Source: a virus. Taken from it: a stretch of 64,000 bases of DNA. The DNA lies in IMG/VR virus record IMGVR_UViG_3300027790_000002; one strand, given 5' to 3'. Shown here in pieces: positions 1,218 through 59,635 of this stretch. The notes beneath the pieces were generated by a model, which worked only from the letters and a program-made list of their open reading frames with translations, made no database searches and was not told where the DNA came from. The position numbers and the translations under genes are program-made. Numbering within the stretch: the stretch's first letter is position 1; each line of letters starts with the position of its first letter.

Positions 1218-1499
1218 ATGCAAATCTGGAAATACAGCCTGAACCTCACCGAAGGGGCGCAGCGCGATTTTGAAATGCCCGAAGGCGCGTCGTTTCTGCA
1301 CGCCCACCGCCAGAACGGCGCCGTCGCGCTGTGGTTCATGGTGGACCCGCAGGCGGAAAAGGAAACCCGGTCGTTCGCCCTTATCGGCACCGGCCACAAT
1401 GTGCCGGACGAACTCGCGCCTTATTATCTGGGCACGACGCATTTTGAAGACTTGGGGCTGGTCCTGCACGTCTTTGAAACGACCGGCGCAGCAGGATAA
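1218..1499 (+). CDS. hypothetical phage protein (93 aa), directly precedes ASCH gene
   Basis: ORF track; strong SD AAAGGGAAAG; stop overlaps start of next gene (TAATG). Confidence 0.55.
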   Translation: MQIWKYSLNLTEGAQRDFEMPEGASFLHAHRQNGAVALWFMVDPQAEKETRSFALIGTGHNVPDELAPYYLGTTHFEDLGLVLHVFETTGAAG

Positions 1500-2071
1500 T
1501 GAAAAAAGCGCGCGGCATCATCATGTCGCCGGCCATGGCCAAAGCGGTGTGGGACGGGCGAAAGACCCAGACCCGCCGTCTGGCTTCAAGTAAATTCATG
1601 GCCAGCGTGAAACCGGGCGACGCCCTTTATGTGCGCGAACGCTTCCGGCTCGAGGTCCAGTTTGACGACCTGCCGCCCAACTATCTGCTGTCAACCGGCT
1701 ATAAATCGACGCCGGTCTGGTACGGCGCCGATGGCGAGCCGCCCTCGCGCAGCCCGTGGGACCGCCCTTACGGCAAGCTGCGCCCATCCATTCACATGCC
1801 GCGCTGGGCAGGGCGCATGATGCTGCACGTCACAGAAGTCCGCACCGAAATGCTTCATGCCATCACCGAAGCCGACGCGAAAGCCGAAGGCGCGCAGCGC
1901 GTGCCGGAAATTGGAAACTCCTACCGCGCCGGGTTTCGGGACATCTGGGACGGGCTGCATGGGGCGAAGCCGGACGCCTGCTGGACGGCGAACCCCGACG
2001 TCATCGCCCTGACCTTCCGCGTCGAGAAAATCACCAAGCAAAGCCTTACAGGAGGCCACCGTGAAAACTGA
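1499..2071 (+). CDS. ASCH-domain protein
   Basis: N-terminal IIMSPAMAKAVWDGRKTQTRR matches ASCH-family core motif. Confidence 0.7.
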   Translation: MKKARGIIMSPAMAKAVWDGRKTQTRRLASSKFMASVKPGDALYVRERFRLEVQFDDLPPNYLLSTGYKSTPVWYGADGEPPSRSPWDRPYGKLRPSIHMPRWAGRMMLHVTEVRTEMLHAITEADAKAEGAQRVPEIGNSYRAGFRDIWDGLHGAKPDACWTANPDVIALTFRVEKITKQSLTGGHREN

Positions 2072-2453
2072 ACCGGACAGCCAACTGCTGCCGCTGGCGG
2101 CCCAGATTGTCGCCGCCTATGTGGCGGGGCCAAACAAACTGCCGGCGGAGAAAATCGGCGACACACTCGCCATGGTGCATGAGGCGTTGCAGGGACTGGC
2201 GCAAGGCGCGCCGGTCGTCAACCGCGAGCCTGCCGTTCCCATCGCCAAGTCCGTGACACCCAACGCCATCATTTGCCTTGAAGACGGCAAGAAACTTAAA
2301 ATGCTGAAACGCTATCTGCGCACGCATTTCGATTTGAGCCCGGAAGAATACCGCCGGAAATGGGGGCTGCCGGCGGATTATCCGATGACGGCGCCGAGTT
2401 ACGCCGAACACAGGTCCAAGTTGGCGAAGCAAACCGGCTTGGGCAAACGATAG
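2061..2453 (+). CDS. mucR: Ros/MucR-family transcriptional regulator homolog, degenerate zinc finger (CLEDG...THF)
   Basis: GTG start with CAGGAGG SD; C-terminal IICLEDGKKLKMLKRYLRTHFDLSPEEYRRKWGLPADYPMTAPSYAEHRSKLAKQTGLGKR aligns with Ros/MucR DNA-binding domain; DIVAAYV N-terminal motif. Confidence 0.75.
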   Translation: MKTEPDSQLLPLAAQIVAAYVAGPNKLPAEKIGDTLAMVHEALQGLAQGAPVVNREPAVPIAKSVTPNAIICLEDGKKLKMLKRYLRTHFDLSPEEYRRKWGLPADYPMTAPSYAEHRSKLAKQTGLGKR

Positions 2454-2462
2454 GAGGCCGCC

Positions 2463-2645
2463 ATGCGTGTTGTTTCAAAAGTCTGGGACTGGGTGAAGGG
2501 CGCCGCCAGCGCCTTGGCCGCGACAGTCTGCAGGCCTTGTTCCATCTGCCGGGAAATCCACTGGAAAGCGCCGTGGTCGGCGCAGACCCGTTGCGGCTAT
2601 TGCGAGTTCGCGCTGCAGTCGCTGCGCGACGAAAACGGGGGCTGA
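2463..2645 (+). CDS. small Cys-rich (CxxC...CxxC) protein, hypothetical
   Basis: ORF track, SD GGAGG upstream. Confidence 0.35.
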   Translation: MRVVSKVWDWVKGAASALAATVCRPCSICREIHWKAPWSAQTRCGYCEFALQSLRDENGG

Positions 2646-2646
2646 T

Positions 2647-2838
2647 ATGAAATTGACGCGCATCCGAAATGTGGGCCGCTTTATAAACCCTGAAACCGGG
2701 CGCGCTGTAAACGTGAAGCGAGGCACGCGCGCTGGCCGCAACACCGACCATCTTTTCTATTTGCAAAGCGGGCGGCGCGTATATATCGGCGACGCGACCT
2801 TTAAGCTTTGGAAGCGTGGCGAGGAAACGAAAGCATGA
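2647..2838 (+). CDS. hypothetical small protein (63 aa)
   Basis: ORF track only. Confidence 0.3.
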   Translation: MKLTRIRNVGRFINPETGRAVNVKRGTRAGRNTDHLFYLQSGRRVYIGDATFKLWKRGEETKA

Positions 2839-3791
2839 CCGGCATTGAATGGACCGACAGGACTTGGAATCCGATAGCGGGGTGTTCCGTGTACGCCGCA
2901 GGCTGCACCAACTGCTACGCCATGCTGCTGGCCGGCACAAGATTGAAACACCATCCGCTTTATGAAGGGCTGACCGATGACACCAAGGCCGGCCCAGTGT
3001 TCAACGGCAAGCTGCGCGCCGCGCCCGACGGTCACCCGGTCTGGACATGGCCGCTGCGCACCCTCACACGCTTTGAGGCGCAGCACGGCCGGCGCCCGCG
3101 CGTCTTTGTCGGCGACATGTCGGATTTGTTTCACAAAGACCGCGACCCGCGCATTATTAGCAAGACTTTTGCGGTAATTGCGCGCGCTTCGCATATTGAC
3201 TTTCAAGTGCTGACAAAGCGCAGCGATGTTTTACTTGACTACATAACCGGGACGGCGGCGGCGGATCTCGCTCGGCAACTTTACAACCTCAACAAATTGA
3301 TTGAGAGCGGCGGCGCACAAGGGCGCGGACTAGATCAATGGCCGCTTCCGAACGTCTGGCTGGGCGTCAGCGTCGAAAATCAGGCCGCCGCCGAGGCGCG
3401 CATTCCGAATTTATTGGCGACGCCGGCGGCGCTGCGCTTCCTGTCGGTCGAACCGCTGCTGGAGTCCGTTGATTTGCAGCGCCTGAAAGTCGGGGAAGGC
3501 AAGGGCGCGGGACCGTTGGCGGGATACGATGTCCGGCTCAACTTAAACAGCCTGGCGGGCGCCGAAAGCATCAAGCTGCCGGCCATTGACTGGGTTATTG
3601 CCGGGCATGAAAGCGGCGCCAAGGCGCGGGCCGGGCAGGCGCAATGGGTCCGCGATGTCATGCTGCAATGCAAAGACGCCGGCACGCCGTTTTTCGCCAA
3701 ACAGCTGTGCATTCATGGCCGGAAAATGCCCATGACGGTGTGGCCGGAAGACTTGAAAGTGCGGCAGTTTCCACCATCGCCCATGCAGTAG
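2835..3791 (+). CDS. phage Gp37/Gp68 family protein (DUF5131)
   Basis: IEWTDRTWNPIAGCSVYAAGCTNCYAM is the family N-terminal Cys motif; start moved to ATG 2835 behind GAGGAAACGAAAGC. Confidence 0.75.
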   Translation: MTGIEWTDRTWNPIAGCSVYAAGCTNCYAMLLAGTRLKHHPLYEGLTDDTKAGPVFNGKLRAAPDGHPVWTWPLRTLTRFEAQHGRRPRVFVGDMSDLFHKDRDPRIISKTFAVIARASHIDFQVLTKRSDVLLDYITGTAAADLARQLYNLNKLIESGGAQGRGLDQWPLPNVWLGVSVENQAAAEARIPNLLATPAALRFLSVEPLLESVDLQRLKVGEGKGAGPLAGYDVRLNLNSLAGAESIKLPAIDWVIAGHESGAKARAGQAQWVRDVMLQCKDAGTPFFAKQLCIHGRKMPMTVWPEDLKVRQFPPSPMQ

Positions 3792-4066: not shown

Positions 4067-4624
4067 ATGAGCGACGATTTGGCGGAAACCCTCAAACCCT
4101 TACAGCAGCTGCCGGACTTGGTGGGCCGGTTGCGCGACGACGGGCTGCCGGACATCTGCAGCGAGGCGGCCAACGAAATTGAGGAATTGCAGGGCTGCTT
4201 CGATATCCGCTGGAAAGCCGATATGCGCGCCATCAAGATGTGGCAGGCGGCGCACCCCGGTAGCGAAAACATCTGGCCGGACCATGCGGAAATGGTCCTG
4301 TGGCTCATGGAACAACTGACAGGCAAAGGAGAAAGCATGGCCTTCAAACCTCTTTACGACCAAGTGCTGGTGAAACTGGAACCGAACAAAAGGGTGACCG
4401 ACGGTGGCATCATCATTCCCGAAGGGGCGCAGGAACAGCCGCAGATTGCGGAAGTGCTGGCCGTCGGGCCGGGCGCACTCAACAGCAAGGGCGTGCGCGC
4501 CCCCATGTCCGTGGCGGTCGGGGACTGGGTTCTTATCAACAAATGGGCCGGCAACGAACTGACCGTGGACGGCGTAAAGGCGCATATTCTGCGCGAGTAT
4601 GACATCATGGGCGTAATCGACTAG
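4067..4624 (+). CDS. groES: GroES (Cpn10) co-chaperonin homolog; 95-aa GroES domain 4337..4624 with in-frame 90-aa N-terminal extension
   Basis: MAFKPLYDQVLVKLEPNKRVTDGGIIIPEGAQEQPQIAEVLAVGPG...VGDWVLINKWAGNELTVDGVKAHILREYDIMGVID aligns along full GroES; strong SD AAAGGAGAAAGC before internal ATG 4337. Confidence 0.75.
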   Translation: MSDDLAETLKPLQQLPDLVGRLRDDGLPDICSEAANEIEELQGCFDIRWKADMRAIKMWQAAHPGSENIWPDHAEMVLWLMEQLTGKGESMAFKPLYDQVLVKLEPNKRVTDGGIIIPEGAQEQPQIAEVLAVGPGALNSKGVRAPMSVAVGDWVLINKWAGNELTVDGVKAHILREYDIMGVID

Positions 4625-6171: not shown

Positions 6172-6297
6172 CAAAGCGACCTCATCAAACCCAGCCTTAA
6201 AACCGACTCCTTTGATGAAATGCTGCACAAGTGCGCCGCGCTTGAATTTCTCATAAAGTCCGCCAGATATTTTGTCGCGCAAGGTCTTACAGTTTAG
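6169..6297 (+). CDS. cassette-driven ORF 1 (42 aa), hypothetical
   Basis: ATG is last 3 nt of cassette copy 1. Confidence 0.35.
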   Translation: MQSDLIKPSLKTDSFDEMLHKCAALEFLIKSARYFVAQGLTV

Positions 6298-6320
6298 GTC
6301 GATTTTTTCAAAAAAACGAC

Positions 6321-6399
6321 TTGACCTTTTTGCGCGATTGTCCCACATTAGTGACATGGAACGGCGCAGGGCCGAACCGGAATTGGAGACAGACCAATG
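6321..6399 (+). promoter_or_regulatory. repeat cassette copy 2 (palindrome half-site variant GTGACAT)
   Basis: TTGACC -35 at 6321; same leader and SD; ATG 6397. Confidence 0.6.
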
Positions 6400-6862: not shown

Positions 6863-7726
6863 ATGAAACGGTTAGAAAATCTTGGGTTTGCAGAAATCCA
6901 AACCGGGGGCGGCTGCACCGCCTTGGCCAAGCCATATTGCGGCGGTCATCTTCTGGTGACGAATAATGACGCCATGGCGCCGGAAAAAACAGACAGGCTT
7001 TTTGCCCTGTGGCGCGAAGACGAAAACGGCGAAGTGATCGAAAAAGAAACCGACGGTTTTTATTCAAGCGACAGGCTGTTTGCGCGCATCGCTTTTTATG
7101 AGAAAGCCGAAAAACTGGCGCGGGAGTTCGCCAAGGTGGTTGAAACCGCCGCCGACCTTGGCAATCTGGACGGCGTCAGTTTTCAGCAGATTTTGGAGCG
7201 CAACCGCGCGGACGCGCCGGGCGTGTGTTCGCTGCATGACGTTTGCGACGCCAACATGCTAATGCACGAAGCATGGATGAATCTATTTGCGCCAAAAGAG
7301 CCCGACGTTAGCAAAAATGCCGATTCCGAATTGTGGGACATCGCGTGGAGCGTCGCCAAACAAACCGACTTTTTCACAAAGGAGGAACCTGTAACGGGCG
7401 CGGACAATTCGCTGCCGCCGCGCTGCACTTATCCCGCCTGCAAGTGCATTGTATCGACCAGCACCAGCCAGCCCGTGCCGGTTTGTCCGCTGGGGCTGCC
7501 GAAAGGCTTAGAGGACAAAGCGCAGCAAGAATTTGACGCGGCGTGGGACGCCTTGGAAGAGCAAGGAAAATGCGACTCGCGCGGCGGCATGGAGTATCTA
7601 AGGGTGCTTGAAGAATGGGCCGGTTATTGCCGCCCGATGACGGTGGCGCAATTCATTGAAGCCAGCGCCAATATTCTGCCAGACGAAACGGTCACCGCCG
7701 CCGCCAAGCGTCTCGGCATTCACTAA
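6863..7726 (+). CDS. hypothetical protein (287 aa), Cys-containing
   Basis: ORF track; ATGAAAGGGAA start-associated motif 16 nt upstream. Confidence 0.5.
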   Translation: MKRLENLGFAEIQTGGGCTALAKPYCGGHLLVTNNDAMAPEKTDRLFALWREDENGEVIEKETDGFYSSDRLFARIAFYEKAEKLAREFAKVVETAADLGNLDGVSFQQILERNRADAPGVCSLHDVCDANMLMHEAWMNLFAPKEPDVSKNADSELWDIAWSVAKQTDFFTKEEPVTGADNSLPPRCTYPACKCIVSTSTSQPVPVCPLGLPKGLEDKAQQEFDAAWDALEEQGKCDSRGGMEYLRVLEEWAGYCRPMTVAQFIEASANILPDETVTAAAKRLGIH

Positions 7727-7740
7727 GAGAAAGGCAAATC

Positions 7741-7986
7741 ATGACGCCCAAACAGTTCACCGATTTTGGCGTGGCGCTATATGGCGAAACCAGCTGGAAA
7801 CAGCAGCTGGCGCTGGACCTCGCCATCAACCGCCGCACGGTCGGGCGCTACGCCAACGGCCAGTGGCCCATTCCAGAAGGCGTCGCCGCCGACCTTATCA
7901 ACCTTGCCGGGAAGCGCGCCGAAGCGCTCACAAGGCTGCTGGGCCGCGCGCAAAATAAAGTGAAAAAATCGACCATGGCCGCTTGA
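7741..7986 (+). CDS. putative HTH DNA-binding protein (81 aa)
   Basis: QQLALDLAINRRTVGRYANGQ resembles Cro/CI-type helix-turn-helix; SD GAGAAAGG. Confidence 0.4.
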   Translation: MTPKQFTDFGVALYGETSWKQQLALDLAINRRTVGRYANGQWPIPEGVAADLINLAGKRAEALTRLLGRAQNKVKKSTMAA

Positions 7987-8061
7987 CATTCCGGCGGCTA
8001 TGTCCCACATTAGGGACATGGAACGGCGCAGGGCCGAACCGAAATTGGAGACAGACCAATG
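7983..8061 (+). promoter_or_regulatory. repeat cassette copy 3
   Basis: TTGACA -35 at 7983; perfect palindrome ATGTCCCacattaGGGACAT; ATG 8059. Confidence 0.6.
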
Positions 8062-8355
8062 ACCCAGCAATTTGAAACCGGAAAAACCTACACCTGCCGC
8101 AGCGTCTGCGACGCAGACTGCGTGTGGACCTTCACCGTGGAGCGCCGCACGGCCAAAACCGTGCATTTCCGCAATCATGAAACCGGCAACGTCCACACCT
8201 GCCGCCCGGCGACGGTCGGCGGTGAGGAAGTCGCCAAGCCGCTGGGCAATTATTCCATGTGCCCGGTGCTGCGCGCCAGCAGCGAACGCGCGCCGACGGC
8301 GCAAGCCTTCAACAGCCAAGGCCGTGAACTCACGGTCACCATTCCCCAAGACTGA
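8059..8355 (+). CDS. cassette-driven ORF 3 (98 aa), Cys/His-rich
   Basis: ORF track; ATG fused to cassette copy 3; followed by 11-bp GC hairpin 8361-8389. Confidence 0.5.
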   Translation: MTQQFETGKTYTCRSVCDADCVWTFTVERRTAKTVHFRNHETGNVHTCRPATVGGEEVAKPLGNYSMCPVLRASSERAPTAQAFNSQGRELTVTIPQD

Positions 8356-8418
8356 AACCAGCGGCGCCGGGGATTGAGCCCGGCGCCGCCAGCTGCCTAA
8401 GCCATGAAAGGGTATCCC

Positions 8419-8940
8419 ATGACAGACCAACACAAACCTGAAATCACGCTAAAGTCAATCAAGCTGCATGAGGGGTTGAGCGAAGAAACCCCGGCATACA
8501 CCGCCACGCTGTGCGTGGACGGCAAGCCTTTTTGTCTGGTGTCGAACGCCGGGCACGGCGGCGGCGACGATTACCACCCGCTGAAAAACAGCAAGACGCC
8601 CCACAATGTCCTGTGGGACCAAATCAAGGCGCTGGACGAACGCATCGCCGACACCTATCCAAAGACTTCCTATGGCGAGGGCGACGAAAAGACAGAACTC
8701 GACGAAACGCTGGAATGCCTGTGCCACGGGCTGGCGTGGCGCGATGCGGACTTCAAACGCTTCAAGCGCATGCTGTCCCGCAAAATCGTCTTTATCAAAA
8801 ACGGCGGCGTGTTCACCATCAACCGGAAATGGGACTCGGCGCTGCTGCCTGCTTTTACGGAAAAGCACCCCACCGCCGAATTGCTCAACACCATGGCGCC
8901 GGACGCCGCCTTTGAAAAAGTGGCGGCGTTGGAATCATGA
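8419..8940 (+). CDS. hypothetical protein (~173 aa)
   Basis: ORF 8404..8940; start set to second ATG by analogy with ATGAAAGGG motif placement at three other genes. Confidence 0.45.
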   Translation: MTDQHKPEITLKSIKLHEGLSEETPAYTATLCVDGKPFCLVSNAGHGGGDDYHPLKNSKTPHNVLWDQIKALDERIADTYPKTSYGEGDEKTELDETLECLCHGLAWRDADFKRFKRMLSRKIVFIKNGGVFTINRKWDSALLPAFTEKHPTAELLNTMAPDAAFEKVAALES

Positions 8941-9188
8941 ACGTGCAAATTCACCTTGGCGGGGAAAACGGCGCCACACATACAGTCACTTACGATGACG
9001 GTCGAAAGCTGCACCTTGTTCCCTGCAACAGCCATGAACAGGCCCGCACTTTCGTTAAGGGCATAGAAGCCGGATACGCCGCCGCCTGCCTTCGGATTGC
9101 GGACGGAAAGCCAGACGTTTTTGATGCGACCAACGCCCAACGGAACGAAAAGGAACTTGAAGATGGGAACGAAAAACAACCCCGGTAA
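8937..9188 (+). CDS. hypothetical protein (83 aa)
   Basis: ATGA overlap with previous gene. Confidence 0.4.
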   Translation: MNVQIHLGGENGATHTVTYDDGRKLHLVPCNSHEQARTFVKGIEAGYAAACLRIADGKPDVFDATNAQRNEKELEDGNEKQPR

Positions 9189-9699
9189 ATTCGACTGCTA
9201 TCACGCGGCGGAGCCGGACGAACCAATGTTTGTTCTGCTGGCGCGCGACCCGCAGGCGCCAAACCTTGTGCGCGAATGGGCGAACCTTCGCCGCCTCTTG
9301 GACCTCAAAAACGAAGACGCGGCGAAGGTGGAGGAAGCGACCATGTGCGCCGACGCCATGGAGGCGTGGTTCAGGGAACACAGGCCCGACAAACTGAAAG
9401 AATGGAAAAACGAAATGCTGGCCGGGTTTTCCGACCGCAAACCGACCAGCGAATGGAACGAATACACTCATGAACTGACCGATGACGAGGGGCGTATCAA
9501 CGAACAGGCGCTGGTGACCGCCGTGCAGGTTTATGTGGCGCAGCAATATATGTGCCGCGCCAGCATCGCCGCCATTGCGCGCGTGTTCAACATCACGCCG
9601 GCGCTCGCCATCGCCGCCGTCAGGGGCCATTACCTTGGCTTTGTCGGCGGCGATGAAAGCGACCCGGTGAATTGCATTGCAGAATATGACGGAGAATAG
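9163..9699 (+). CDS. hypothetical protein (~178 aa)
   Basis: ORF 9097..9699; internal ATG 9163 behind AAGGAACTTGAAG. Confidence 0.4.
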   Translation: MGTKNNPGKFDCYHAAEPDEPMFVLLARDPQAPNLVREWANLRRLLDLKNEDAAKVEEATMCADAMEAWFREHRPDKLKEWKNEMLAGFSDRKPTSEWNEYTHELTDDEGRINEQALVTAVQVYVAQQYMCRASIAAIARVFNITPALAIAAVRGHYLGFVGGDESDPVNCIAEYDGE

Positions 9700-10719: not shown

Positions 10720-10796
10720 CAGGGTGTGGCGCAGTCGGTCAGCGCGCTCGCCTCGGAAGCGAGAAGCCGCGGGTTCGAGTCCCGCCACCCTGACCA
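10720..10796 (+). tRNA. tRNA-Pro(CGG)
   Basis: acceptor CAGGGTG/CACCCTG, D GCGC/GCGC, anticodon stem CTCGC/GCGAG loop CTCGGAA, T GCGGG-TTCGAGT-CCCGC, A-CCA. Confidence 0.75.
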
Positions 10797-10833
10797 AATC
10801 CGAAAACAGACCACGACACGGCGCTAAATTTTA

Positions 10834-10911
10834 GCCGCCGTAGCTCAGTTGGTCAGAGCGCCGTCCTTGTAAGCCGGAAGTAGCGGGTTCGAATCCACGC
10901 CGGCGGCACCA
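10834..10911 (+). tRNA. tRNA-Thr(UGU), T stem with bulged A
   Basis: acceptor GCCGCCG/CGGCGGC, loop CTTGTAA, T loop TTCGAAT, A-CCA; one mismatch in anticodon stem. Confidence 0.6.
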
Positions 10912-10973
10912 AAATCCAGAAAGTCAGTACGATGAACAAGCGAAGGGAACACCGAGATATTAGCGCCTGACAA

Positions 10974-11049
10974 GGCGCGATGGTGTCATGGGTTAACATG
11001 GTTGACTGTCCATCAACAGCAACGGGTTCGAGTCCCGTTCGCGCCGCCA
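10974..11049 (+). tRNA. tRNA-Asp(GUC)
   Basis: acceptor GGCGCGA/TCGCGCC, anticodon stem GTTGA/TCAAC loop CTGTCCA, T ACGGG-TTCGAGT-CCCGT, G-CCA. Confidence 0.7.
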
Positions 11050-11064
11050 GTGCAGCAGGGCTTG

Positions 11065-11139
11065 CCCGGCGTAGCTCAGCGGTAGAGCGTCCGGCTGATA
11101 ACCGGAAGGGCGCGGGTTCAAATCCCGCCGCCGGCACCA
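11065..11139 (+). tRNA. tRNA-Ile(GAU)
   Basis: D GCTC-AGCGGTA-GAGC, anticodon stem TCCGG/CCGGA loop CTGATAA, T GCGGG-TTCAAAT-CCCGC, A-CCA; apparent C1-C72 mismatch. Confidence 0.65.
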
Positions 11140-11167
11140 GTTTTCGACAGCAACGCGCCTGAATTGT

Positions 11168-11242
11168 TGGCGCGTAGCTTAGTGGTAGAGCACTTGAATT
11201 TGACTCAAGGGGTCGGCGGTTCGAATCCTCCCGCGCCATCCA
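11168..11242 (+). tRNA. tRNA-Gln(UUG)
   Basis: U1-A72 first pair (GlnRS-type), anticodon stem CTTGA/TCAAG loop ATTTGAC, T loop TTCGAAT, T-CCA. Confidence 0.7.
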
Positions 11243-11308
11243 ACCCTTAAAGGTGAAAAAAATGAGACGACATCACGGGACTTTTCGAGAGCGCAGCGCG
11301 TAAACCGC

Positions 11309-11384
11309 GCAGCCTTCGTCTAGCGGTCTAGGATTCCGGCCTTTCAAGCCGGCGACGCCGGTTCAAATCCGGTAGGCTGCACCA
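11309..11384 (+). tRNA. tRNA-Glu(UUC)
   Basis: acceptor GCAGCCT/AGGCTGC, anticodon stem CCGGC/GCCGG loop CTTTCAA, T GCCGG-TTCAAAT-CCGGT, A-CCA. Confidence 0.75.
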
Positions 11385-11385
11385 T

Positions 11386-11462
11386 CCCGAAGTCGTCTAA
11401 CTGGTCAGGACGCTTGATTGTGGATCAGGAAATTACGGGTTCGAGTCCCTGCTTCGGGACCA
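11386..11462 (+). tRNA. tRNA-His(GUG), alphaproteobacterial type (A73, U at -1, no G-1)
   Basis: acceptor CCCGAAG/CTTCGGG, anticodon stem CTTGA/TCAGG loop TTGTGGA, T loop TTCGAGT, A-CCA. Confidence 0.65.
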
Positions 11463-11559
11463 AACAGAGAACGGTGTAAAAAATGTACGAAGTGTACGGA
11501 ACGTACAAACCGAAACGGAAACGGAACGCTTAGCGCAAGCCAGGCGGGCGTGCGCTTAT

Positions 11560-11637
11560 GGGCGCGCCGCCGTCTGGGAATGGCCACCGGCTTTTAACCG
11601 GTCACCTTGTCGGGTTCGAATCCCACCGCGCTCACCA
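11560..11637 (+). tRNA. tRNA-Lys(UUU)
   Basis: anticodon stem ACCGG/CCGGT loop CTTTTAA, T loop TTCGAAT with bulged C in 5' strand, 3' CGCGCTC-A-CCA. Confidence 0.6.
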
Positions 11638-11699
11638 CCTATTTGTTGGAGTCAACCAAATGGCTAAATTCAGGCGACGGCGACGCAACAGACTGAACT

Positions 11700-11775
11700 G
11701 TGCGCGTAGCTCAATGGACAGAGCCGCCGGCTTCTAACCGGCTCAATGCGGGTTCGACTCCTGCCGCGCACGCCA
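11700..11775 (+). tRNA. tRNA-Arg(UCU)
   Basis: acceptor GTGCGCG/CGCGCAC, D GCTC/GAGC, anticodon stem GCCGG/CCGGC loop CTTCTAA, T GCGGG-TTCGACT-CCTGC, G-CCA. Confidence 0.75.
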
Positions 11776-11778
11776 TGC

Positions 11779-11855
11779 AGCCCCGTGGCGCAATGGACTA
11801 GCGCAGCAGATTACGAATCTGAAGGTTCCGGGTTCGAGTCCCGGCGGGGCCGCCA
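11779..11855 (+). tRNA. tRNA-Arg(ACG)
   Basis: D GCGC-AATGGACTA-GCGC, loop TTACGAA, T CCGGG-TTCGAGT-CCCGG, 3' CGGGGCC-G-CCA; apparent A1-C72. Confidence 0.65.
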
Positions 11856-11862
11856 ATTTCAA

Positions 11863-11938
11863 GCGCGGCTACCTTAATGGACAGAGGGCCGGCTTCCGAA
11901 GCCGGAATGTCGGGGTTCGACTCCCCGGCCGCGCGCCA
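11863..11938 (+). tRNA. tRNA-Arg(CCG)
   Basis: acceptor GCGCGGC/GCCGCGC, anticodon stem CCGGC/GCCGG loop TTCCGAA, T CGGGG-TTCGACT-CCCCG, G-CCA. Confidence 0.75.
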
Positions 11939-11965: not shown

Positions 11966-12202
11966 TTATTTCGCGGCTTTCGGGCCGCAGGCTTTAGTGC
12001 GTTTCGCATCGTTCAGGGCCGCGTCAAGCGACAGCGCCGCGTTGCGAATGTGATCGTCGATCTCCGGCTCTGATAAATCGACGTTGCCGTTCAGGCCCCG
12101 AAGCTGTCGGGAATATTTTTCGATCCGGAGCAGCATTTTTTCAGCCGAAACATTCACTTGGCGGGTCCTTTCATTTAGCGTTCCGCCGGTCGATAGCGGC
12201 AA
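11966..12202 (-). CDS. hypothetical small protein (78 aa), last gene of minus-strand moron operon
   Basis: ORF track; ends ...KAAK* followed by conserved junction GAGGACGCTGAAAATG with no downstream ORF. Confidence 0.4.
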   Translation of the reverse strand: MPLSTGGTLNERTRQVNVSAEKMLLRIEKYSRQLRGLNGNVDLSEPEIDDHIRNAALSLDAALNDAKRTKACGPKAAK

Positions 12203-12401
12203 CCGCTTTCGCGATCCGCTTAACTAGGGAGTCACTGGCTTTGACGCGGGGGCATTTCATCGCCTCTGGCTTTTCGTTTCCAATAGGCCAGTATGCGACC
12301 TTATGAGCATCCCAAACCGGGAGCCGTCGCGAGACTGAAATAATGTGGCCGCCATGCTCAAAGCGGAGGTCGCCGCGCTTGCTCAATCCATAATCAGCCA
12401 T
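12171..12401 (-). CDS. hypothetical small protein (76 aa)
   Basis: ORF track; overlaps neighbours by a few codons. Confidence 0.4.
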   Translation of the reverse strand: MADYGLSKRGDLRFEHGGHIISVSRRLPVWDAHKVAYWPIGNEKPEAMKCPRVKASDSLVKRIAKAVAAIDRRNAK

Positions 12402-13304: not shown

Positions 13305-13884
13305 CTCACGCCTTCCGGCCGAGCTTTCGCGCGGCGGCCTTCCGGCTGATTGTTGCTTCCGAGACTTTCCACTTGCGCGCCATCTGCGGGATGCTGATCG
13401 CGTCGTCTTTCCAGTCCCGATCAAACTGCGCCCATGCGGCGCGATCAAGGTCGGCGAGGGCCTTCGGGCGCCCGCCGGGGTTTTTCTTGTGCTTCTCCGA
13501 GCCGCGCGCGTTCGCCGTCTGCGCCTGGCGCTTGTCGCGCGTCAGCGCCTTCGCAATCTTGGCATGGCTTTCGTCGGCGGTGAAATTCTCGGCCATATCA
13601 ATCACATAAACGCTGGCGCGCTGGTCCGTCACGGCGGCGAGAACGCTGAACAAGTCGCCCGCATTCGCCGCAAGGTGGAGCGGTGACAACACGCACAATT
13701 CGTCGCCGGGCCGCAGGATGGCGATCAGGTCGGCGCGTTCCGGGCGCGGGTCTTCGTCCGGGCGCGGTTTCCGCTTCCAGACCTTCTCCGCGATGATCTT
13801 GGCCGCGCCGACATCGGCGAGGGCTTCGCGCTGTTCCTCGACGGAAGCGCCCGCCTTGATCTTGGCCACATATCCAAATCGCAT
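13305..13884 (-). CDS. serine-recombinase (resolvase/invertase) family protein, N-terminal catalytic motif degenerate, C-terminal HTH
   Basis: MRFGY... start; GDELCVLSPLHL...DLFSVLAAV resembles resolvase core; ISIPQMARKWKVSEATISRKAAARKLG is the resolvase-type HTH; canonical RVST-xx-Q serine not evident. Confidence 0.5.
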
Positions 13885-14389: not shown

Positions 14390-14476
14390 GGGCGAGTATG
14401 CAAGCGGTCGAAGCGAGCGGGCTGTAACCCCGCACATTGGAAACGTCGGGGGTTCGAATCCACCCCTCGCCCACCA
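14390..14476 (+). tRNA. tRNA-Tyr(GUA), class II (long variable arm)
   Basis: acceptor GGGCGAG/CTCGCCC, anticodon stem GCGGG/CCCGC loop CTGTAAC, T loop TTCGAAT (3' strand CC-A-CCC bulge), A-CCA; 87 nt. Confidence 0.65.
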
Positions 14477-14662
14477 TCTGCAAATTCAGGATATTTTATT
14501 CAAATCTTATTCACGGTTGACAGTGTCAACGGCGCGCGCCTAGATGGTCCTTGATTTGCACCGCCGCAGGAAGTCCGCCTGCGGAATGACACGGCCAACG
14601 GGAGTAAGGACACATGAAAAACGGTCTGAACATCGCGATATTATGGCGACTCTCGAATTTTG

Positions 14663-14739
14663 GCGCGTGTAGCTCAGTCGGTAGAGCCGCCTCCTCATAA
14701 GAGGTAGGGTCGCAAGTTCAAGTCTTGCCACGCGCACCA
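14663..14739 (+). tRNA. tRNA-Met(CAU), elongator or Ile2-type (no GGG/CCC in anticodon stem)
   Basis: acceptor GCGCGTG/CACGCGC, D GCTC/GAGC, loop CTCATAA, T GCAAG-TTCAAGT-CTTGC, A-CCA. Confidence 0.7.
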
Positions 14740-14741
14740 AT

Positions 14742-14816
14742 AGCGGTGTCCGTCTAATGGTAAGACAGCAGTCTCCAAAACTGAAAATGTGGGTTCGATT
14801 CCCGCCGCCGCTGCCA
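14742..14816 (+). tRNA. tRNA-Trp(CCA)
   Basis: loop CTCCAAA, T GTGGG-TTCGATT-CCCGC, 3' CGCCGCT-G-CCA. Confidence 0.65.
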
Positions 14817-14819
14817 AAT

Positions 14820-14900
14820 CCCCCCGTGGGCAAATTTTGGTAAAGTCACCGGTCTTAAAAACCGGCAGCGTTGCGGGTTCGAGTCCCGCCGGGGGGACCA
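14820..14900 (+). tRNA. tRNA-Leu(UAA)-like, atypical: class-II-type D arm but short (7 nt) variable loop
   Basis: acceptor CCCCCCG/CGGGGGG, D GGC-AAATTTTGGTAAA-GTC, anticodon stem CCGGT/ACCGG loop CTTAAAA, T GCGGG-TTCGAGT-CCCGC, A73-CCA; 81 nt. Confidence 0.55.
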
Positions 14901-14907
14901 ACCACAA

Positions 14908-14984
14908 GGGCTCGTAGCTCAGCCTGGGAGAGCAACGGTTTTGCACGCCGCAGGTCGTCAGTTCAAATCTGACCGGGTCCACCA
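14908..14984 (+). tRNA. tRNA-Ala(UGC)
   Basis: G3-U70 wobble identity pair present; GCTCAGCCTGGGAGAGC D arm; loop TTTGCAC; T GTCAG-TTCAAAT-CTGAC; A-CCA. Confidence 0.75.
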
Positions 14985-14989
14985 GCAAC

Positions 14990-15069
14990 GCCTCGCTGGG
15001 CAAATTTTGGTAAAGTCGTCTGATTTAGGATCAGAAGTTTTCCCGGTTCGAGTCCGGGGCGGGGCACCA
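14990..15069 (+). tRNA. tRNA-Leu(UAG)-like, atypical (same D arm as 14820 tRNA, 6-nt variable loop)
   Basis: D GGC-AAATTTTGGTAAA-GTC identical 22-nt to other Leu-like; anticodon stem TCTGA/TCAGA loop TTTAGGA; T CCCGG-TTCGAGT-CCGGG; A-CCA. Confidence 0.55.
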
Positions 15070-15145
15070 CAAAACAGCGCGGCAAGATCCCGCGCAATGA
15101 AAGGTTAGAACGATGCCAGACGATTCAAGTTCGTCCAGCGAGAAA

Positions 15146-15231
15146 GGAAGGGTGGCAGAGCGGTAATGCAGCGGCTTGCTAAGCCGTAGGGCCTCATGGT
15201 TCCGCCGGTTCGACTCCGGCCCCTTCCGCCA
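15146..15231 (+). tRNA. tRNA-Ser(GCU), class II
   Basis: acceptor GGAAGGG/CCCTTCC, loop TTGCTAA, long variable arm, T GCCGG-TTCGACT-CCGGC, G-CCA. Confidence 0.7.
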
Positions 15232-15235
15232 ATTT

Positions 15236-15321
15236 GGAGGGCGCCGCTCGATGGTAGGCAACCGGTCCCGAAAACCGGGGTGGCGTTCGCGTCAGTGGTT
15301 CGACTCCGCCGCCCTCCGCCA
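15236..15321 (+). tRNA. tRNA-Ser(CGA), class II, apparent C33
   Basis: acceptor GGAGGGC/GCCCTCC, anticodon stem CCGGT/ACCGG loop CCCGAAA (cf E. coli serU CTCGAAA), T loop TTCGACT, G-CCA. Confidence 0.6.
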
Positions 15322-15396
15322 AATTCAGAACCTTTTGAGGTCGGCTGGCCAACGGGCTGCAGACTGAAACGCCCGGGCCTTCCTCAAAGGGTTTGC

Positions 15397-15471
15397 CGCG
15401 CGGTAGCTCAGCGGTAGAGCGCCGGTTTGAAGGGCCGGGCGTCGTGGGTTCAATCCCCACCCGCGCAACCA
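15397..15471 (+). tRNA. tRNA-Phe(GAA)
   Basis: D GCTC-AGCGGTA-GAGC, loop TTGAAGG, T GTGGG-TTCAATC-CCCAC, 3' CCGCGCA-A-CCA; apparent C1-A72. Confidence 0.65.
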
Positions 15472-15514
15472 TGTTAATTTTCGCCCCCTCATTTGAGGGC
15501 GAAAAAATGAACAC

Positions 15515-15590
15515 AGGGGCGTAGCTCAGTGCGAAGAGCGGCTGTTTTACACACAGCGGGTCGCGGGTTCGATTCCTGCCGCCCCCACCA
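15515..15590 (+). tRNA. tRNA-Val(UAC)
   Basis: anticodon stem GCTGT/ACAGC loop TTTACAC, T GCGGG-TTCGATT-CCTGC, 3' CGCCCCC-A-CCA. Confidence 0.7.
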
Positions 15591-15595
15591 GTTTC

Positions 15596-15668
15596 GCGGG
15601 CTTCCTCCAGGTGAGGTAAGGGCCTTCCAAGCCCCCACGGTCGGGTTCGAGTCCCACAGTCCGCTCCA
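15596..15668 (+). tRNA. tRNA-Gly(UCC)
   Basis: U73 discriminator and TCCA end typical of Gly; loop CTTCCAA; T loop TTCGAGT with bulged C. Confidence 0.65.
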
Positions 15669-15673
15669 GTTTT

Positions 15674-15750
15674 TGGGATAGGGCCCCGCTGGTAGGGGCG
15701 CATGGCTGTTAACCATGTCGCTGCAGGTTCGAGTCCTGCTATCCCAGCCA
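15674..15750 (+). tRNA. tRNA-Asn(GUU)
   Basis: acceptor TGGGATA/TATCCCA, anticodon stem CATGG/CCATG loop CTGTTAA, T GCAGG-TTCGAGT-CCTGC, G-CCA. Confidence 0.7.
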
Positions 15751-15751
15751 G

Positions 15752-15825
15752 GCGCGGGTGTCCGAGTGGCAAGGAGCCGGATTGCAACCCCGGTTAGAGC
15801 GGTTCGATTCCGCTCCCGCGCTCCA
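15752..15825 (+). tRNA. tRNA-Cys(GCA)
   Basis: acceptor GCGCGGG/CCCGCGC, loop TTGCAAC, T AGCGG-TTCGATT-CCGCT, U73-CCA as in Cys. Confidence 0.7.
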
Positions 15826-16065: not shown

Positions 16066-16515
16066 GCAATGACGCAGAAACCCTTGCTGGCGGCCTATCT
16101 CGCCGCCGCCGATTTTGAGCATGCTTTCAGGGCGTTGCTGCTGCAGCACGCACAGCACCTTTTCCCGAATATCAGCATCGTTATAACGCTGACGGTTTAC
16201 GCGATGGCCAACGGCGTAAAGACGCCGGCGGACCTCAAACGCTGGCGCGCCTGCACCGGCGCCAACGCCAATTATTCCTGTATGCAGTCCGTCAAAGCCG
16301 GCTTTATCACGATGTGCGACAACCCGGATGATGCCCGCTCAAAGCGGCTGATTTTGACCGAACAGGGGCATCTGCTGGCTGACCATTTGCGGGGCGTAAC
16401 GGACAAGCAATTCACGATGCTGGAAAAATTCACGCCGGCGATGGCGCATTTGCCTGACATCACCAAGCTGCTGCGGGAAATGGTCGATTACAAAATGCCG
16501 ATGGAATGGCGCTAG
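16066..16515 (+). CDS. putative MarR-like winged-helix regulator
   Basis: internal ATG of ORF 16018..16515; SKRLILTEQGHLLADHLRGVTDKQF resembles MarR wHTH. Confidence 0.4.
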   Translation, partial: AMTQKPLLAAYLAAADFEHAFRALLLQHAQHLFPNISIVITLTVYAMANGVKTPADLKRWRACTGANANYSCMQSVKAGFITMCDNPDDARSKRLILTEQGHLLADHLRGVTDKQFTMLEKFTPAMAHLPDITKLLREMVDYKMPMEWR

Positions 16516-17897
16516 TTAAACACGACGTCGCTGAACGGCAACGCGATTTTCTGCAGCTGGGCCGCCTTCCATTCCATGCTGACTCCACCGCCATATTGCG
16601 GCCGTTTGACCGCGTGGCCCATGAACTCCGCCCGTAATTCTGCGTCCAATCCTGCCTCCTTCATGCGGTCTTCAAAGGAATGGCGCAGCGAATAGACCAC
16701 ATGGGCGCCGGACGGCATGAGGCCGCGGTCACGCATTTCTGACAGCAGCAGGTCGGACAGTTCCTTTTCGTTTTCCCGCCAGGCGGGAAACCCTTGCGGG
16801 TTCCGGCGCATCGCCGCCAGCGATACGCCGACCAGCGGGACGCGGCGCGCCGAGCTCCGCGTCTTGATTTCCCGGCCTTCGCGCGGGCGAATGTCCAGAT
16901 AAGGGGCCCAACCGTCCGGTTTTTCGCCGCCGGCGTCCAGTTTTATGGCCTCACTGTTCAGATTGGCGACTTCGCCGGGCCGCGCGCCGGTTTCAATCAG
17001 AATTAACAGGATGTCGCGGGCCTGTGCGTCCATGCCGGCAAGCGCCCCGGGCGCAAGGATCCTGTCGCGAATCCATGCGGTCGGAAAGGGCGGGCGGCGC
17101 TGCTGCTGGCCGCCCTTGAATTTCAGCCCGTCAAACGGGTTGCCGCCGTCATAATCCGGCGCGGTCCATGCCATATATTCGCGGAACAGCTGGCGCATGT
17201 TGCCGAGATCCCGCGCCGCAGTCGCCGGTGTGATTTGCCCGGCGTCGATACGCGCTTGCAGCCAGCGGTGGAACTGGCGGCCGTCGGTGCGTGTGACCGC
17301 GCCCAGGCCTTTGTCCTCGCCTATCGCTTTCAGGAAATTGTTAACCGCCCGCGTCTTCACCTGCCGCCATTTGCGGTATTGTTTCGGGCTTTTTGAGCGG
17401 CGTTGCCCCGCCTCGATTTCTTCCAGATACAGCCGAAACGCCGACCGCACGCTATCGGAAAGCGCCGGCGCGCCGCCCAAGAGCGCCTCCACCATATCCG
17501 CTGGCGGCAGCCCGTCACGGGGGCTGGTGGCGTGGGCGCGCAGGGCGTCCAGCCGCGCCAGCAGCCCCTCGAGCGGGCCGGCGGCGATGTCTTCGGCGTC
17601 CTGATACTCAAACCCCAGCGCCAGCGCCCGCTGCGCCGCCGCCTCGCGCGAGGCCCGGGCGATTGCCGCAGGGCCTGCGTCCAGACCGGCCCAGTAGGCG
17701 TCGTCGGCGGCTTCCAGTTCGTCGCGCATGGTGCGGGCGCGCGTAACGTCGGCGGTGCCAAGCCCGCAGCGAATGAGCGGCGCGCGTTCGTCCAGCAGCG
17801 CCAGGCGCGCCGGCACGCGACGCCTGTAGAACCAGCGGCCTTTTCGGCGCTGCAAATATCGGTTGGGGTCCGTCATCACCGCCGGCGGCTTCGCCAT
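16512..17897 (-). CDS. int: tyrosine recombinase / phage integrase
   Basis: C-terminal VYSLRHSFEDRM...MGHAVK...Y matches R-HxxR-Y catalytic box; convergent with MarR-like gene. Confidence 0.85.
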   Translation of the reverse strand: MAKPPAVMTDPNRYLQRRKGRWFYRRRVPARLALLDERAPLIRCGLGTADVTRARTMRDELEAADDAYWAGLDAGPAAIARASREAAAQRALALGFEYQDAEDIAAGPLEGLLARLDALRAHATSPRDGLPPADMVEALLGGAPALSDSVRSAFRLYLEEIEAGQRRSKSPKQYRKWRQVKTRAVNNFLKAIGEDKGLGAVTRTDGRQFHRWLQARIDAGQITPATAARDLGNMRQLFREYMAWTAPDYDGGNPFDGLKFKGGQQQRRPPFPTAWIRDRILAPGALAGMDAQARDILLILIETGARPGEVANLNSEAIKLDAGGEKPDGWAPYLDIRPREGREIKTRSSARRVPLVGVSLAAMRRNPQGFPAWRENEKELSDLLLSEMRDRGLMPSGAHVVYSLRHSFEDRMKEAGLDAELRAEFMGHAVKRPQYGGGVSMEWKAAQLQKIALPFSDVVFN

Positions 17898-25411: not shown

Positions 25412-25790
25412 ACTGAAAACGGGGCGCGCCGAAGCGCCGCCCCGTCCCGGTCTTCTGTTGCCAGGCGACCAAACCCCGTGAAATTACGCCGCGAGGCGCT
25501 GTTCCACAAAATTGCCGTTATCGTTGGCAGTTCTTAAAGTCGGCTTATACGCGGCCAACCGGCGTTCTCAGCTTTCGTTTCACCGTCTGTCGAACCCAAA
25601 TCGGCCCCATCAAGAACGCATCCCAAGGCGGGTTTGGCGCAGGGCATTTTCAACCCATCCACCCGCGGGGCAGGACCGACAAGCGGCGCCGCCACCCCAG
25701 ATGCGCTCTTGGTGGAGCCGGCGGGAATTGAACCCGCGTCCAGTCCAGCTACGCCAAAGCGTCAGCGAGCGCGGCGGAAGGGTAGCATCG
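25412..25790 (-). ncRNA. ssrA: tmRNA (ssrA), two-piece circularly permuted alphaproteobacterial type; tag ANDNGNFVEQRLAA
   Basis: minus strand GGACGCGGGTTCAATTCCCGCCGGCTCCACCA (25738-25707) nearly identical to the E. coli tmRNA 3' T-arm/acceptor, but no 5' acceptor partner upstream; downstream at 25528-25484 reads GCC AAC GAT AAC GGC AAT TTT GTG GAA CAG CGC CTC GCG GCG TAA; ~380 nt precursor size fits two-piece ssrA. Confidence 0.7.
25419..25459. terminator. GC-rich hairpin, candidate bidirectional intrinsic terminator
   Basis: ACGGGGCG...CGCCCCGT stem followed by TCTTCTGTT on plus and GTTTT on minus; sits between Tat-protein gene and tmRNA 3' end. Confidence 0.5.
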
Positions 25791-25831
25791 AATTTTTCAC
25801 GAAAAAAGGTCTGTTTTCGTGAAATTCGGAC

Positions 25832-27414: not shown

Positions 27415-27491
27415 TGGGTGCGGGAGGGGGATTTGAACCCCCGACCTCTTGGTTATGAGCCAAGCGCGCTACCGGACTGCGCCATCCACGC
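27415..27491 (-). tRNA. tRNA-Met(CAU)-like
   Basis: minus strand: D GCGC-AGTCCGGTA-GCGC, anticodon stem CTTGG/CCAAG loop CTCATAA, T GGGGG-TTCAAAT-CCCCC, 3' TCCCGCA-C-CCA; acceptor needs one bulged U. Confidence 0.55.
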
Positions 27492-27634
27492 ATCAACGGC
27501 GCCGGGCATGGCAGACCGGGTGCGCAATGTCAAGTTTGCGAAAAGCGCCGAACGCGCTTAGCGGTCGATTGTCCGGCGTGACATTGTAGCGTAGCGGTCG
27601 GCGGGCGTTGCTTATCATCGCCGACCCGCTGCAC

Positions 27635-58942: not shown

Positions 58943-59019
58943 TGGTCTGTCTCCAATTCCGGTTCGGCCCTGCGCCGTTCCATGTCCCTAATGTGGGACA
59001 TTTGCCGGGAATTGTCAAG
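58940..59019 (-). promoter_or_regulatory. repeat cassette copy 5 (minus strand)
   Basis: reverse complement gives TTGACA-N17-palindrome-leader-GGAG-ATG identical to plus-strand copies. Confidence 0.6.
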
Positions 59020-59635
59020 CGCCAATTTCGATTTTTTCATCGAATTTGGTGGCCTCATTTCCCCAGCTATCCCAGCCCGGACGCGACTGCCGGCTGAACA
59101 GGTCGGCGCGGCGCATGGCCGTGGGCGGCGTCAGGCGTTCCGCCACCGCATAGGCTTCGTCCGGCTTGCGGCTGTGTTCGCGCGCTGGCGCGGTGATGAC
59201 GCTGCGCACATTCGCCGGCGACGGCGTCGGCGGGTTGCCGACCACGCCGATAAGGAAAGGCTCGTTGCTGCTGCGCAGCCAGTAGCCGGTGCCAAAAAAC
59301 GGCTTGCCGGTCGCCGTCGTCTTCACCCATGTGCCGGCGGTCACAAAGCGAAAGCCCCAGGCGTCCATGACCTCAAACGCTTCGCGCAGCATTGGATTGG
59401 TGGCCCATAGGAACAGGACGCAATCGCGCCCGGCCAGCTGGTTGACAGGCAGCGCCTTGATGTCTTCCAGCGGCATGCAGTCATATTTGGCGCTGGCGTT
59501 CTTGAGTTCGCCCTTTTTCGACCAGTTGTCGAACTTCCACGCCGGGTCGGCCATTATCATGCCGTATTGCATCATGGGCATGGAACCGAACGGCCACTCG
59601 TCACGCACCGTTTGCCACCGCCGCGAAATCCACAA
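59015..59635 (-). CDS. MT-A70-family N6-adenine DNA methyltransferase
   Basis: IMADPAWKF (DPPW motif), LFLWAT, C-terminal EHSRKP. Confidence 0.8.
   Translation of the reverse strand: MWISRRWQTVRDEWPFGSMPMMQYGMIMADPAWKFDNWSKKGELKNASAKYDCMPLEDIKALPVNQLAGRDCVLFLWATNPMLREAFEVMDAWGFRFVTAGTWVKTTATGKPFFGTGYWLRSSNEPFLIGVVGNPPTPSPANVRSVITAPAREHSRKPDEAYAVAERLTPPTAMRRADLFSRQSRPGWDSWGNEATKFDEKIEIGA

Follow-up and report, generated by a model that had tools for sequence, protein, structure and literature searches.

A phage-encoded Ros/MucR homolog with family-typical metal-site residues, a rare substitution in its oligomerization-type domain and a shortened C-terminal tail

Introduction

The 64,000-nucleotide stretch of IMG/VR virus record IMGVR_UViG_3300027790_000002 analyzed here (hereafter the window) carries, at positions 2061-2453 of the plus strand, a gene for a homolog of the Ros/MucR regulators, and the question that it raises is what a virus-borne copy of such a protein would do to MucR control in the host cell. 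In alphaproteobacteria, MucR is the counterpart of H-NS and has a second role in regulating the cell cycle. We report that the metal-site residues of the phage protein, which look aberrant beside Ros, are those found in most of its relatives, and that its rare features lie in the N-terminal oligomerization-type domain and at the extreme C-terminus. On balance, the sequence makes it probable that the product is a host-derived nucleoid-type regulator that would bind MucR-type AT-rich sites, perhaps with no DNA bridging, and would modulate the MucR control of the host in the course of infection.

Little is known of how MucR silencing is relieved, apart from the effect of cyclic di-GMP (c-di-GMP). 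Mobile elements that bring along a silencer homolog of their own, or a protein that inhibits the silencer of the host, have been described, namely phage H-NS, the plasmid proteins Sfh/Pmr and T7 gp5.5 (PMC7710501); these belong to protein families unrelated to MucR, and their likeness to the phage MucR is one of functional analogy only. Phage copies of MucR itself have been cited as evidence of phage-mediated transfer (PMC7710501, PMC5463345): a review from 2020 counted five bacteriophage entries and ascribed some MucR duplications to this route (PMC7710501), while a review from 2022 described the link between MucR and phage-derived genes as unexplored (PMC9779718).

A complete Ros/MucR gene in phage DNA

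A previous sequence-only reading of the window had proposed a phage-encoded Ros/MucR homolog at this locus, and both parts of that assignment hold. The translated open reading frame (ORF) matches the Pfam family PF05443 (ROS_MUCR) over profile positions 2-123 of 123, with an E-value of 1.6e-43 and 148.1 bits against a cut-off of 25.4 bits, and a phmmer search matches it to PDB 2JSP (Ros87, the DNA-binding domain of Ros) at E=2.9e-26, while no model in NCBIfam or PHROGs matched the protein. The product belongs to the Ros/MucR family and has both family domains. The gene lies in phage DNA, since the window also encodes a 2,056-amino-acid tape measure protein, a major head protein, a head maturation protease, a minor tail protein, a tyrosine integrase and a helicase, and the genes flanking mucR belong to the PHROG families phrog_874, phrog_3848, phrog_2045 (DUF5131) and phrog_3188 (GroES-like). 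Metagenome gene callers returned an identical 130-amino-acid protein on a 73.9-kb ENA contig (the source of locus L001, at position 7941 of which the window starts) and on a Logan contig, the two contigs being identical across the 14,088 bases compared.

Translation starts at a GTG codon, 5 nt downstream of a Shine-Dalgarno sequence (AGGAGG, 2050-2055, plus strand), and the start overlaps the 3' end of the upstream ORF (1499-2071) by 11 nt, an arrangement from which the two genes are predicted to be translationally coupled. At the other end, the stop codon sits inside the ribosome-binding site (TAGGAGG) of the downstream ORF (2463-2645). The features of the gene are as follows.

2061-2453, plus strand: complete Ros/MucR ORF, 130 amino acids and a TAG stop (ORF list; PF05443 match; same product called on the ENA and Logan contigs)
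2085-2204, plus strand: N-terminal oligomerization-type domain, residues 9-48, a predicted helix hairpin (helices 9-22 and 29-47; AlphaFold2 predicted local distance difference test score, pLDDT, 84-90)
2235-2450, plus strand: C-terminal DNA-binding domain, residues 59-130, with a predicted Ros87-type beta-beta-beta-alpha-alpha fold and a C-terminal helix
2274-2330, plus strand: equivalents of the Ros zinc-site residues by alignment to 2JSP, C72 (2274-2276), D75 (2283-2285), Y85 (2313-2315), H89 (2325-2327) and F90 (2328-2330)
2436-2453, plus strand: C-terminus ending GLGKR-stop, two residues past the conserved GLG (sequence and family alignment)

Metal-site residues follow the pattern of most homologs

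The sequence-only reading had singled out two alterations of the zinc site, a CLEDG motif in which the second Cys is replaced and THF in place of THH. Both can be read from the translated ORF (residues 72-76, 2274-2288, and residues 88-90, 2322-2330), and the ligand mapping, made solely by alignment to PDB 2JSP, pairs Ros C79 with C72, C82 with D75, H92 with Y85, H96 with H89 and H97 with F90. The two reported substitutions, at C82 and H97, are thus correct, and the list was incomplete, as it lacked a third one, H92 to Y85, visible as LKRYL where Ros has LKRHL. The Cys2His2 site of Agrobacterium tumefaciens Ros, whose DNA-binding fold the phage protein shares with 58% identity over 79 aligned columns, hence differs at three of its four ligands (C82D, H92Y and H97F). 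Because either of the two adjacent Ros histidines (H96/H97) can act as the fourth ligand (PMC11662661), the classical ligand that is truly missing is the third one. The protein accordingly has neither the Ros-type set (Cys-X2-Cys-X9-His-X4-His) nor the Cys-Asp-His2 set of the MucR/Ml1-3 type, its third position being Tyr85; the classical ligands left are Cys72, Asp75 and His89.

The frequency of these residues was counted in four samples aligned to the family profile, comprising the 119 homologs nearest to the phage protein (identity 61-69%), 150 sequences that each represent a cluster at 50% identity, 34 IMG/VR loci and 80 metagenome loci. Asp occupies the second ligand position (C82) in 380 of the 383 homologs: 119/119 nearest, 147/150 representatives, 34/34 viral and 80/80 metagenome sequences, with the Ros-type second Cys present in three of the 150 representatives. 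Tyr or Phe at the H97 position is likewise the majority state (118/119, 132/150, 27/34 and 80/80, in the same order), and ten representatives have His there. Tyr at the third position (H92) is found in 116/119 nearest homologs, 47/150 representatives, 9/34 viral and 45/80 metagenome sequences; as all four samples are relatives of the phage MucR and not a random draw from the family, the 31% obtained for the representatives is a biased figure. The combined C-D-Y pattern occurs in 116 of the 119 nearest homologs, 94 of which display CDYHY or CDYHF. Published surveys agree that most homologues carry Asp at the second position (PMC12948726, PMC5745721). Judged by this census, the ligand pattern of the phage MucR is the normal state of the family and of the likely host lineage, and Ros is the atypical member, so that the notion of a notable departure at the metal site does not stand. 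The result is mainly corrective, the residues taken as altered being the norm and Ros the exception.

Compared with characterized proteins, the phage site has the second-position Asp in common with Brucella MucR and Mesorhizobium Ml1-3, which have a Cys-Asp-His2 zinc site (PMC9779718, PMC11662661, PMC12948726), and an incomplete ligand set in common with the zinc-free Ml4/Ml5, although these replace the first Cys with Ser whereas the phage protein keeps it. The third ligand is a conserved His in the described M. loti proteins and Tyr here. A His at position 89 or 90 accompanies Tyr85 in only 7 of the 47 diverse representatives with this Tyr, so few that the Tyr85 class as a whole would be unable to form a Cys-Asp-His2 site. 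In the papers examined, it is the third position that is called conserved (PMC12948726), a Tyr ligand is proposed at the fourth position alone, for MucR2 of Sinorhizobium meliloti (PMC13297338), and no report on the zinc status of the C-D-Y class was found. This class, which makes up about a third of the sampled homologs and mostly has no His at the site, may represent another metal-site solution, either zinc-free or Tyr-coordinated, a question that concerns a large cellular clade and not the phage gene specifically.

Rare features lie outside the conserved DNA-binding core

The DNA-binding domain is predicted to adopt a Ros-type fold: a model of this domain by itself (pLDDT 84.4) retrieves 2JSP in Foldseek with E=8e-6, a TM score of 0.66 and 58% identity. 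Its median identity to the nearest homologs is 81%, and the phage protein keeps all 30 invariant alignment columns of these 119 sequences and 28 of the 28 invariant columns of the domain, including the basic K83, R84, R87, R118 and K123. Further basic residues fall in invariant or at least 90% conserved columns, giving the series K63, K77, K78, K80, K83, R84, R87, R98, R99, K100, R118 and K123. The DNA-contacting basic residues in and after the finger are preserved, the polybasic extension at the terminus being the sole part lost. In the N-terminal domain the conserved IVAAYV...N motif is present, and identity to cellular homologs falls to 44%, compared with 54% among the cellular homologs themselves.

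A first rare feature is found at the start of helix 2, where I32-G33-D34-T35-L36 (2154-2168) corresponds to L36-P37-x-L39-I40 of Brucella MucR, a mapping derived from motif spacing, column statistics and the published mutagenesis (PMC6250670). A Brucella triple mutant with L36A, L39A and I40A is monomeric and non-functional (PMC6250670, PMC11662661). In the phage protein the first and third positions of this triad, I32 and L36, are conservative changes, and the middle one is Thr35. Thr at this L39 equivalent occurs in none of the 119 nearest homologs, at most two of the 150 representatives, none of the 34 viral and none of the 80 metagenome homologs. Position 33, a Pro conserved in at least 90% of the nearest homologs, is Gly, and the loop between the two N-terminal helices contains an extra residue, P24, an insertion seen in 0 of 383 homologs.

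A further rare feature is the tail. Three or fewer residues after GLG are found in 0/119 nearest homologs, 4/150 representatives, 3/34 viral and 0/79 metagenome sequences; the nearest cellular homologs have a median tail of 22 amino acids with a net charge of +11. Short tails are thus counted in 3/34 viral against 4/348 other copies; as the three viral cases are close relatives of one another (L003 and L004 being identical), these counts are not read as an enrichment. A basic cluster at the end of S. fredii MucR1 (RRKRR) contributes, with R69, to c-di-GMP sensing, which relieves bridging (PMC12560781); the phage MucR retains KR alone at the place of this cluster.

Characterized parallels are the plasmid-borne MucR2 and MucR3 of S. 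meliloti, which have a Thr in the key triad and bind MucR1 sites with no DNA bridging, MucR2 being monomeric and MucR3 oligomerizing weakly (PMC13297338). Like the phage MucR, they combine residence on a mobile element, a conserved DNA-binding domain, a triad Thr and a metal site that departs from the canonical one and involves Tyr. They differ in that their Thr is at the I40 equivalent rather than the L39 equivalent, in that they keep the third-ligand His and have Lys-Tyr at the fourth position, and in being plasmid-borne and longer.

Probable origin from a marine alphaproteobacterial lineage

Cellular MucRs of Parvularculaceae and related marine alphaproteobacteria (for example Hyphococcus luteus, P0015, and a metagenomic sequence, P0004) are the nearest relatives. 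Their identity to the phage protein is 59-66% over the full length, 61-69% when aligned locally by BLASTP, and about 81% within the DNA-binding domain. These Parvularculaceae-type proteins share the C-D-Y-H-Y/F residues and the two-domain architecture with the phage MucR, from which they differ by their length of 150-160 amino acids, a Lys/Arg-rich tail of 20-25 residues, Leu at the L39 equivalent, Pro33 and the absence of the loop insertion. The source names attached to the nearest homologs are Parvularcula, Hyphococcus and Oricola. Two neighborhoods of nearest homologs were inspected and both are chromosomal, with housekeeping or ordinary cellular genes; in Hyphococcus luteus (Parvularculaceae) the neighbors of mucR are glyA, nrdR, nusB, thiL and an SRP54-family gene. 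One metagenomic copy of this nearest cellular locus has a second ROS_MUCR fragment of 75 amino acids just downstream of the chromosomal mucR (L038, 6589-6816). Sequence comparison indicates that the phage MucR most likely derives by capture from the chromosomal MucR of a marine alphaproteobacterial lineage resembling Parvularculaceae, or else has a recent ancestor in common with it, and the host lineage is probably Parvularculales; a search of genome contigs for the host by means of the major head protein gave no match.

Annotated MucRs are already present in GenBank for the Erythrobacter phages vB_EliS_R6L and ZS04, the Mesorhizobium phage Cp1R7A-A1 and the Citromicrobium phage vB_CbaS-RXM (PMC5463345), and at least 34 loci with MucR homologs were found in IMG/VR. 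As in the present case, these are full-length homologs within blocks of small early-type genes. They are 38-59% identical to the present protein, have independent origins across the tree, vary in their ligand patterns (CDHHY, CDYAF, SDHH...) and have neither Thr35 nor the loop insertion that mark the 2061-2453 product. Phage MucRs are thus already known, and the present gene is an isolated addition, with no ortholog closer than 69%.

A likely modulator of host MucR control

The DNA that the protein binds, its oligomeric state, whether it carries zinc and its role in the cell are inferred from these comparisons. As a specific step within the general proposal, we tentatively suggest that the phage MucR would bind DNA, bridge it weakly or not at all, and compete with host MucR or modulate its control. 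Since its DNA-binding domain is about 81% identical to those of cellular MucRs, it would be expected to recognize the AT-rich, TpA-containing sites of host MucR. Once bound, it would alter MucR-dependent silencing, cell-cycle transcription or the organization of phage DNA during infection. The Thr in the oligomerization triad, the altered helix-helix loop and the near absence of the polybasic tail make weak or no bridging more likely, and the likeness to S. meliloti MucR2/MucR3, with their conserved reading head and altered triad, together with the lost polybasic tail, points to a competitor or modulator rather than to a classical bridging silencer.

Such a classical H-NS-like silencer, which would homo-oligomerize and bridge DNA, either topping up the silencer pool as a stealth function in the manner of plasmid H-NS homologs or silencing phage or host genes so as to stabilize lysogeny, is the alternative to be taken most seriously, and we regard it as somewhat unlikely. 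Both domains are intact, the N-terminal hairpin is predicted with confidence, I32 and L36 are conservative replacements at two of the three key hydrophobic positions, and the integrase implies that the phage is probably temperate; phage MucRs have moreover been reported to keep the conserved oligomerization and DNA-binding residues (PMC7710501). What speaks against a bridging silencer is the combination of a Thr at the L39 equivalent that is essentially absent from 383 homologs, the Pro33 to Gly change, the extra loop residue and the loss of the polybasic tail, to which is added the location of the gene in a long, tightly packed rightward operon of small early/accessory genes, about 14 kb from an integrase on the opposite strand. 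An antagonist of the truncated H-NS kind, which would co-assemble with host MucR through the N-terminal domain and poison the oligomer, appears quite improbable. Known poison subunits keep the oligomerization domain and lose DNA binding, and the pattern seen here is the reverse, with a DNA-binding domain conserved at 81% and an N-terminal domain at 44% that is changed at interface and packing residues, even though its core (I16, V17, A18, A19, Y20, V21 and N25) is conserved and MucR paralogs of S. fredii do form hetero-oligomers (PMC12560781). Among the roles that the sequence-only reading had put forward (anti-silencer, dominant negative or lysogeny regulator), a dominant negative that works through the N-terminal domain is disfavored by the conservation pattern, which would fit competition through the DNA-binding domain.

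A functionless passenger, newly acquired from the host and decaying, would fit the isolation of the gene, which stands as a singleton without close orthologs in phages, and the lack of a matching PHROG family. We consider it highly improbable, as the ORF is undisrupted, a strong ribosome-binding site precedes it, coupling is predicted, all 30 invariant columns of the nearest homologs are shared, the codon-position GC content resembles that of the neighboring phage genes, the domain core has been kept although every cellular copy differs by 31-39% in amino acids, and MucR homologs recur across many phages and viral contigs.

Several points weigh against the competitor or modulator proposal itself. 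Ros has just seven residues after GLG, so a short tail is compatible with DNA binding. The triple Ala mutant is the sole triad variant tested experimentally (PMC6250670), and it does not cover a single Leu-to-Thr change. No close ortholog that would show whether Thr35, the loop and the short tail are conserved was found, the best identities being 69% in the protein database, 59% in IMG/VR and 60% in metagenome contigs, and the ENA and Logan contigs do not differ over the bases compared. An abnormal divergence of the N-terminal domain as a whole was considered and rejected, as 25 of the 119 cellular homologs deviate equally from the conserved N-terminal columns. One of five domain-only AlphaFold2 models of the DNA-binding domain was confident, and in the full-length model this domain is poorly predicted and gave no Foldseek hit. 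The window has no strongly AT-rich islands as obvious MucR targets, with a minimum of 39% GC in 120-bp windows, and we found no experimental study of any phage-encoded MucR in the literature.

If the phage MucR is a counter-silencer of host MucR, it would be the first protein of this kind to be described for MucR. A phage copy that competes with host MucR would also provide a simple natural tool to probe MucR silencing, and an example of a phage equipped with several host nucleoid and cell-cycle regulators (MucR, GapR, GcrA and methyltransferases).

Genomic neighborhood

The genes next to mucR in the rightward operon, and those of a divergent leftward block just upstream of the window (L001, 1-5782), are listed below; coordinates preceded by L001 refer to that locus.

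1499-2071, plus strand: upstream gene, 190 amino acids, phrog_874, function unknown, overlapping the MucR ORF (ORF list; PHROG)
2463-2645, plus strand: small Cys-rich ORF, 60 amino acids, starting 10 nt past the MucR stop (ORF list)
2808-3791, plus strand: DUF5131/phrog_2045 gene, after the 60-amino-acid ORF (Pfam and PHROG match)
L001 5522-5782, minus strand: GapR-like DNA-binding protein
L001 4124-4321, minus strand: GcrA-like protein, 65 amino acids
L001 2818-4113, minus strand: HTH_36/DnaA_N protein
L001 648-2327, minus strand: C5 DNA methyltransferase
L001 1-651, minus strand: D12-class N6-adenine methyltransferase

Homologs of alphaproteobacterial nucleoid and cell-cycle regulators, namely MucR, the GapR-like and GcrA-like proteins and the methyltransferases, thus occur together in one phage. 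An extended form of the competitor proposal, in which a phage MucR with the DNA-reading surface of the host protein, unable to form bridging rings and possibly insensitive to c-di-GMP, would drive host MucR off AT-rich promoters and, with the GapR-like protein, the GcrA-like protein and the methyltransferases, reprogram the cell-cycle and nucleoid state of the host for phage replication, is speculative and in our estimate rather unlikely. A third DNA methyltransferase-like gene of the contig, of the MT-A70 family (E=1.4e-36), is found at 59015-59635 on the minus strand.

In other viral contigs of IMG/VR, mucR adjoins a DUF5131 gene in L143 (4374-5981), L025 and L029 (about 7700-9200), adjoins relatives of the phrog_874-like 190-amino-acid gene in L024 (8239-8985), L025 and L029, and lies within 5 kb of a GapR homolog in L007 (5488-5709), L022 (311-562) and L034 (2313-2543). 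These arrangements hint that phages of alphaproteobacteria may share a nucleoid-protein module whose conservation is loose. A pattern scan of IMG/VR found no relatives of the 190-amino-acid upstream gene, and a megablast of window positions 1-25000 against GenBank phages gave no match.

The 60-amino-acid product of 2463-2645 (plus strand) displays a CxxC...CxxC spacing (CRPCSIC...CGYC) with no family match, and is a candidate small zinc-ribbon protein that would be translated together with MucR. Further downstream, the gene at 4067-4624 (plus strand) encodes a fusion protein, in which a Cpn10/GroES domain (residues 93-184, E=3.6e-26) is preceded by some 90 N-terminal residues that match no family. 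A second MucR-like match at 12185-12328 (minus strand, E=0.065) was dismissed, as the ORF has no family features.

The most AT-rich stretch of the window, 6195-6366 (39% GC over 120 bp), contains a promoter-like TTGACC...CATTAG arrangement with an upstream T/A tract, and is a candidate internal promoter and possible nucleoid-protein site; the divergent early promoter region at L001 5783-5876 is not AT-rich.

The phage encodes recombinases from two distinct families: a serine recombinase with a resolvase N-terminal domain (13306-13884, minus strand), between two tRNA arrays, and the tyrosine integrase (16512-17897, minus strand), just past the second of these arrays. The tRNA genes number 25, mostly in two dense arrays (807-883, 10720-11938 and 14390-15825 on the plus strand, 27415-27492 on the minus strand), and ARAGORN assigns them to 19 amino acids, none of them Gly, a very large set for a phage contig of about 74 kb. 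A permuted alphaproteobacterial-type transfer-messenger RNA (tmRNA) gene lies at 25443-25811 on the minus strand (Rfam RF01849, 78 bits; RF04321, 95.5 bits), with the tag peptide ANDNGNFVEQRLAA; it could be a phage-borne tmRNA or the remnant of an ssrA attachment site. Near the end of the window, the gene at 62198-63061 (minus strand) encodes an SPFH/Band 7 domain protein (E=1.4e-24).

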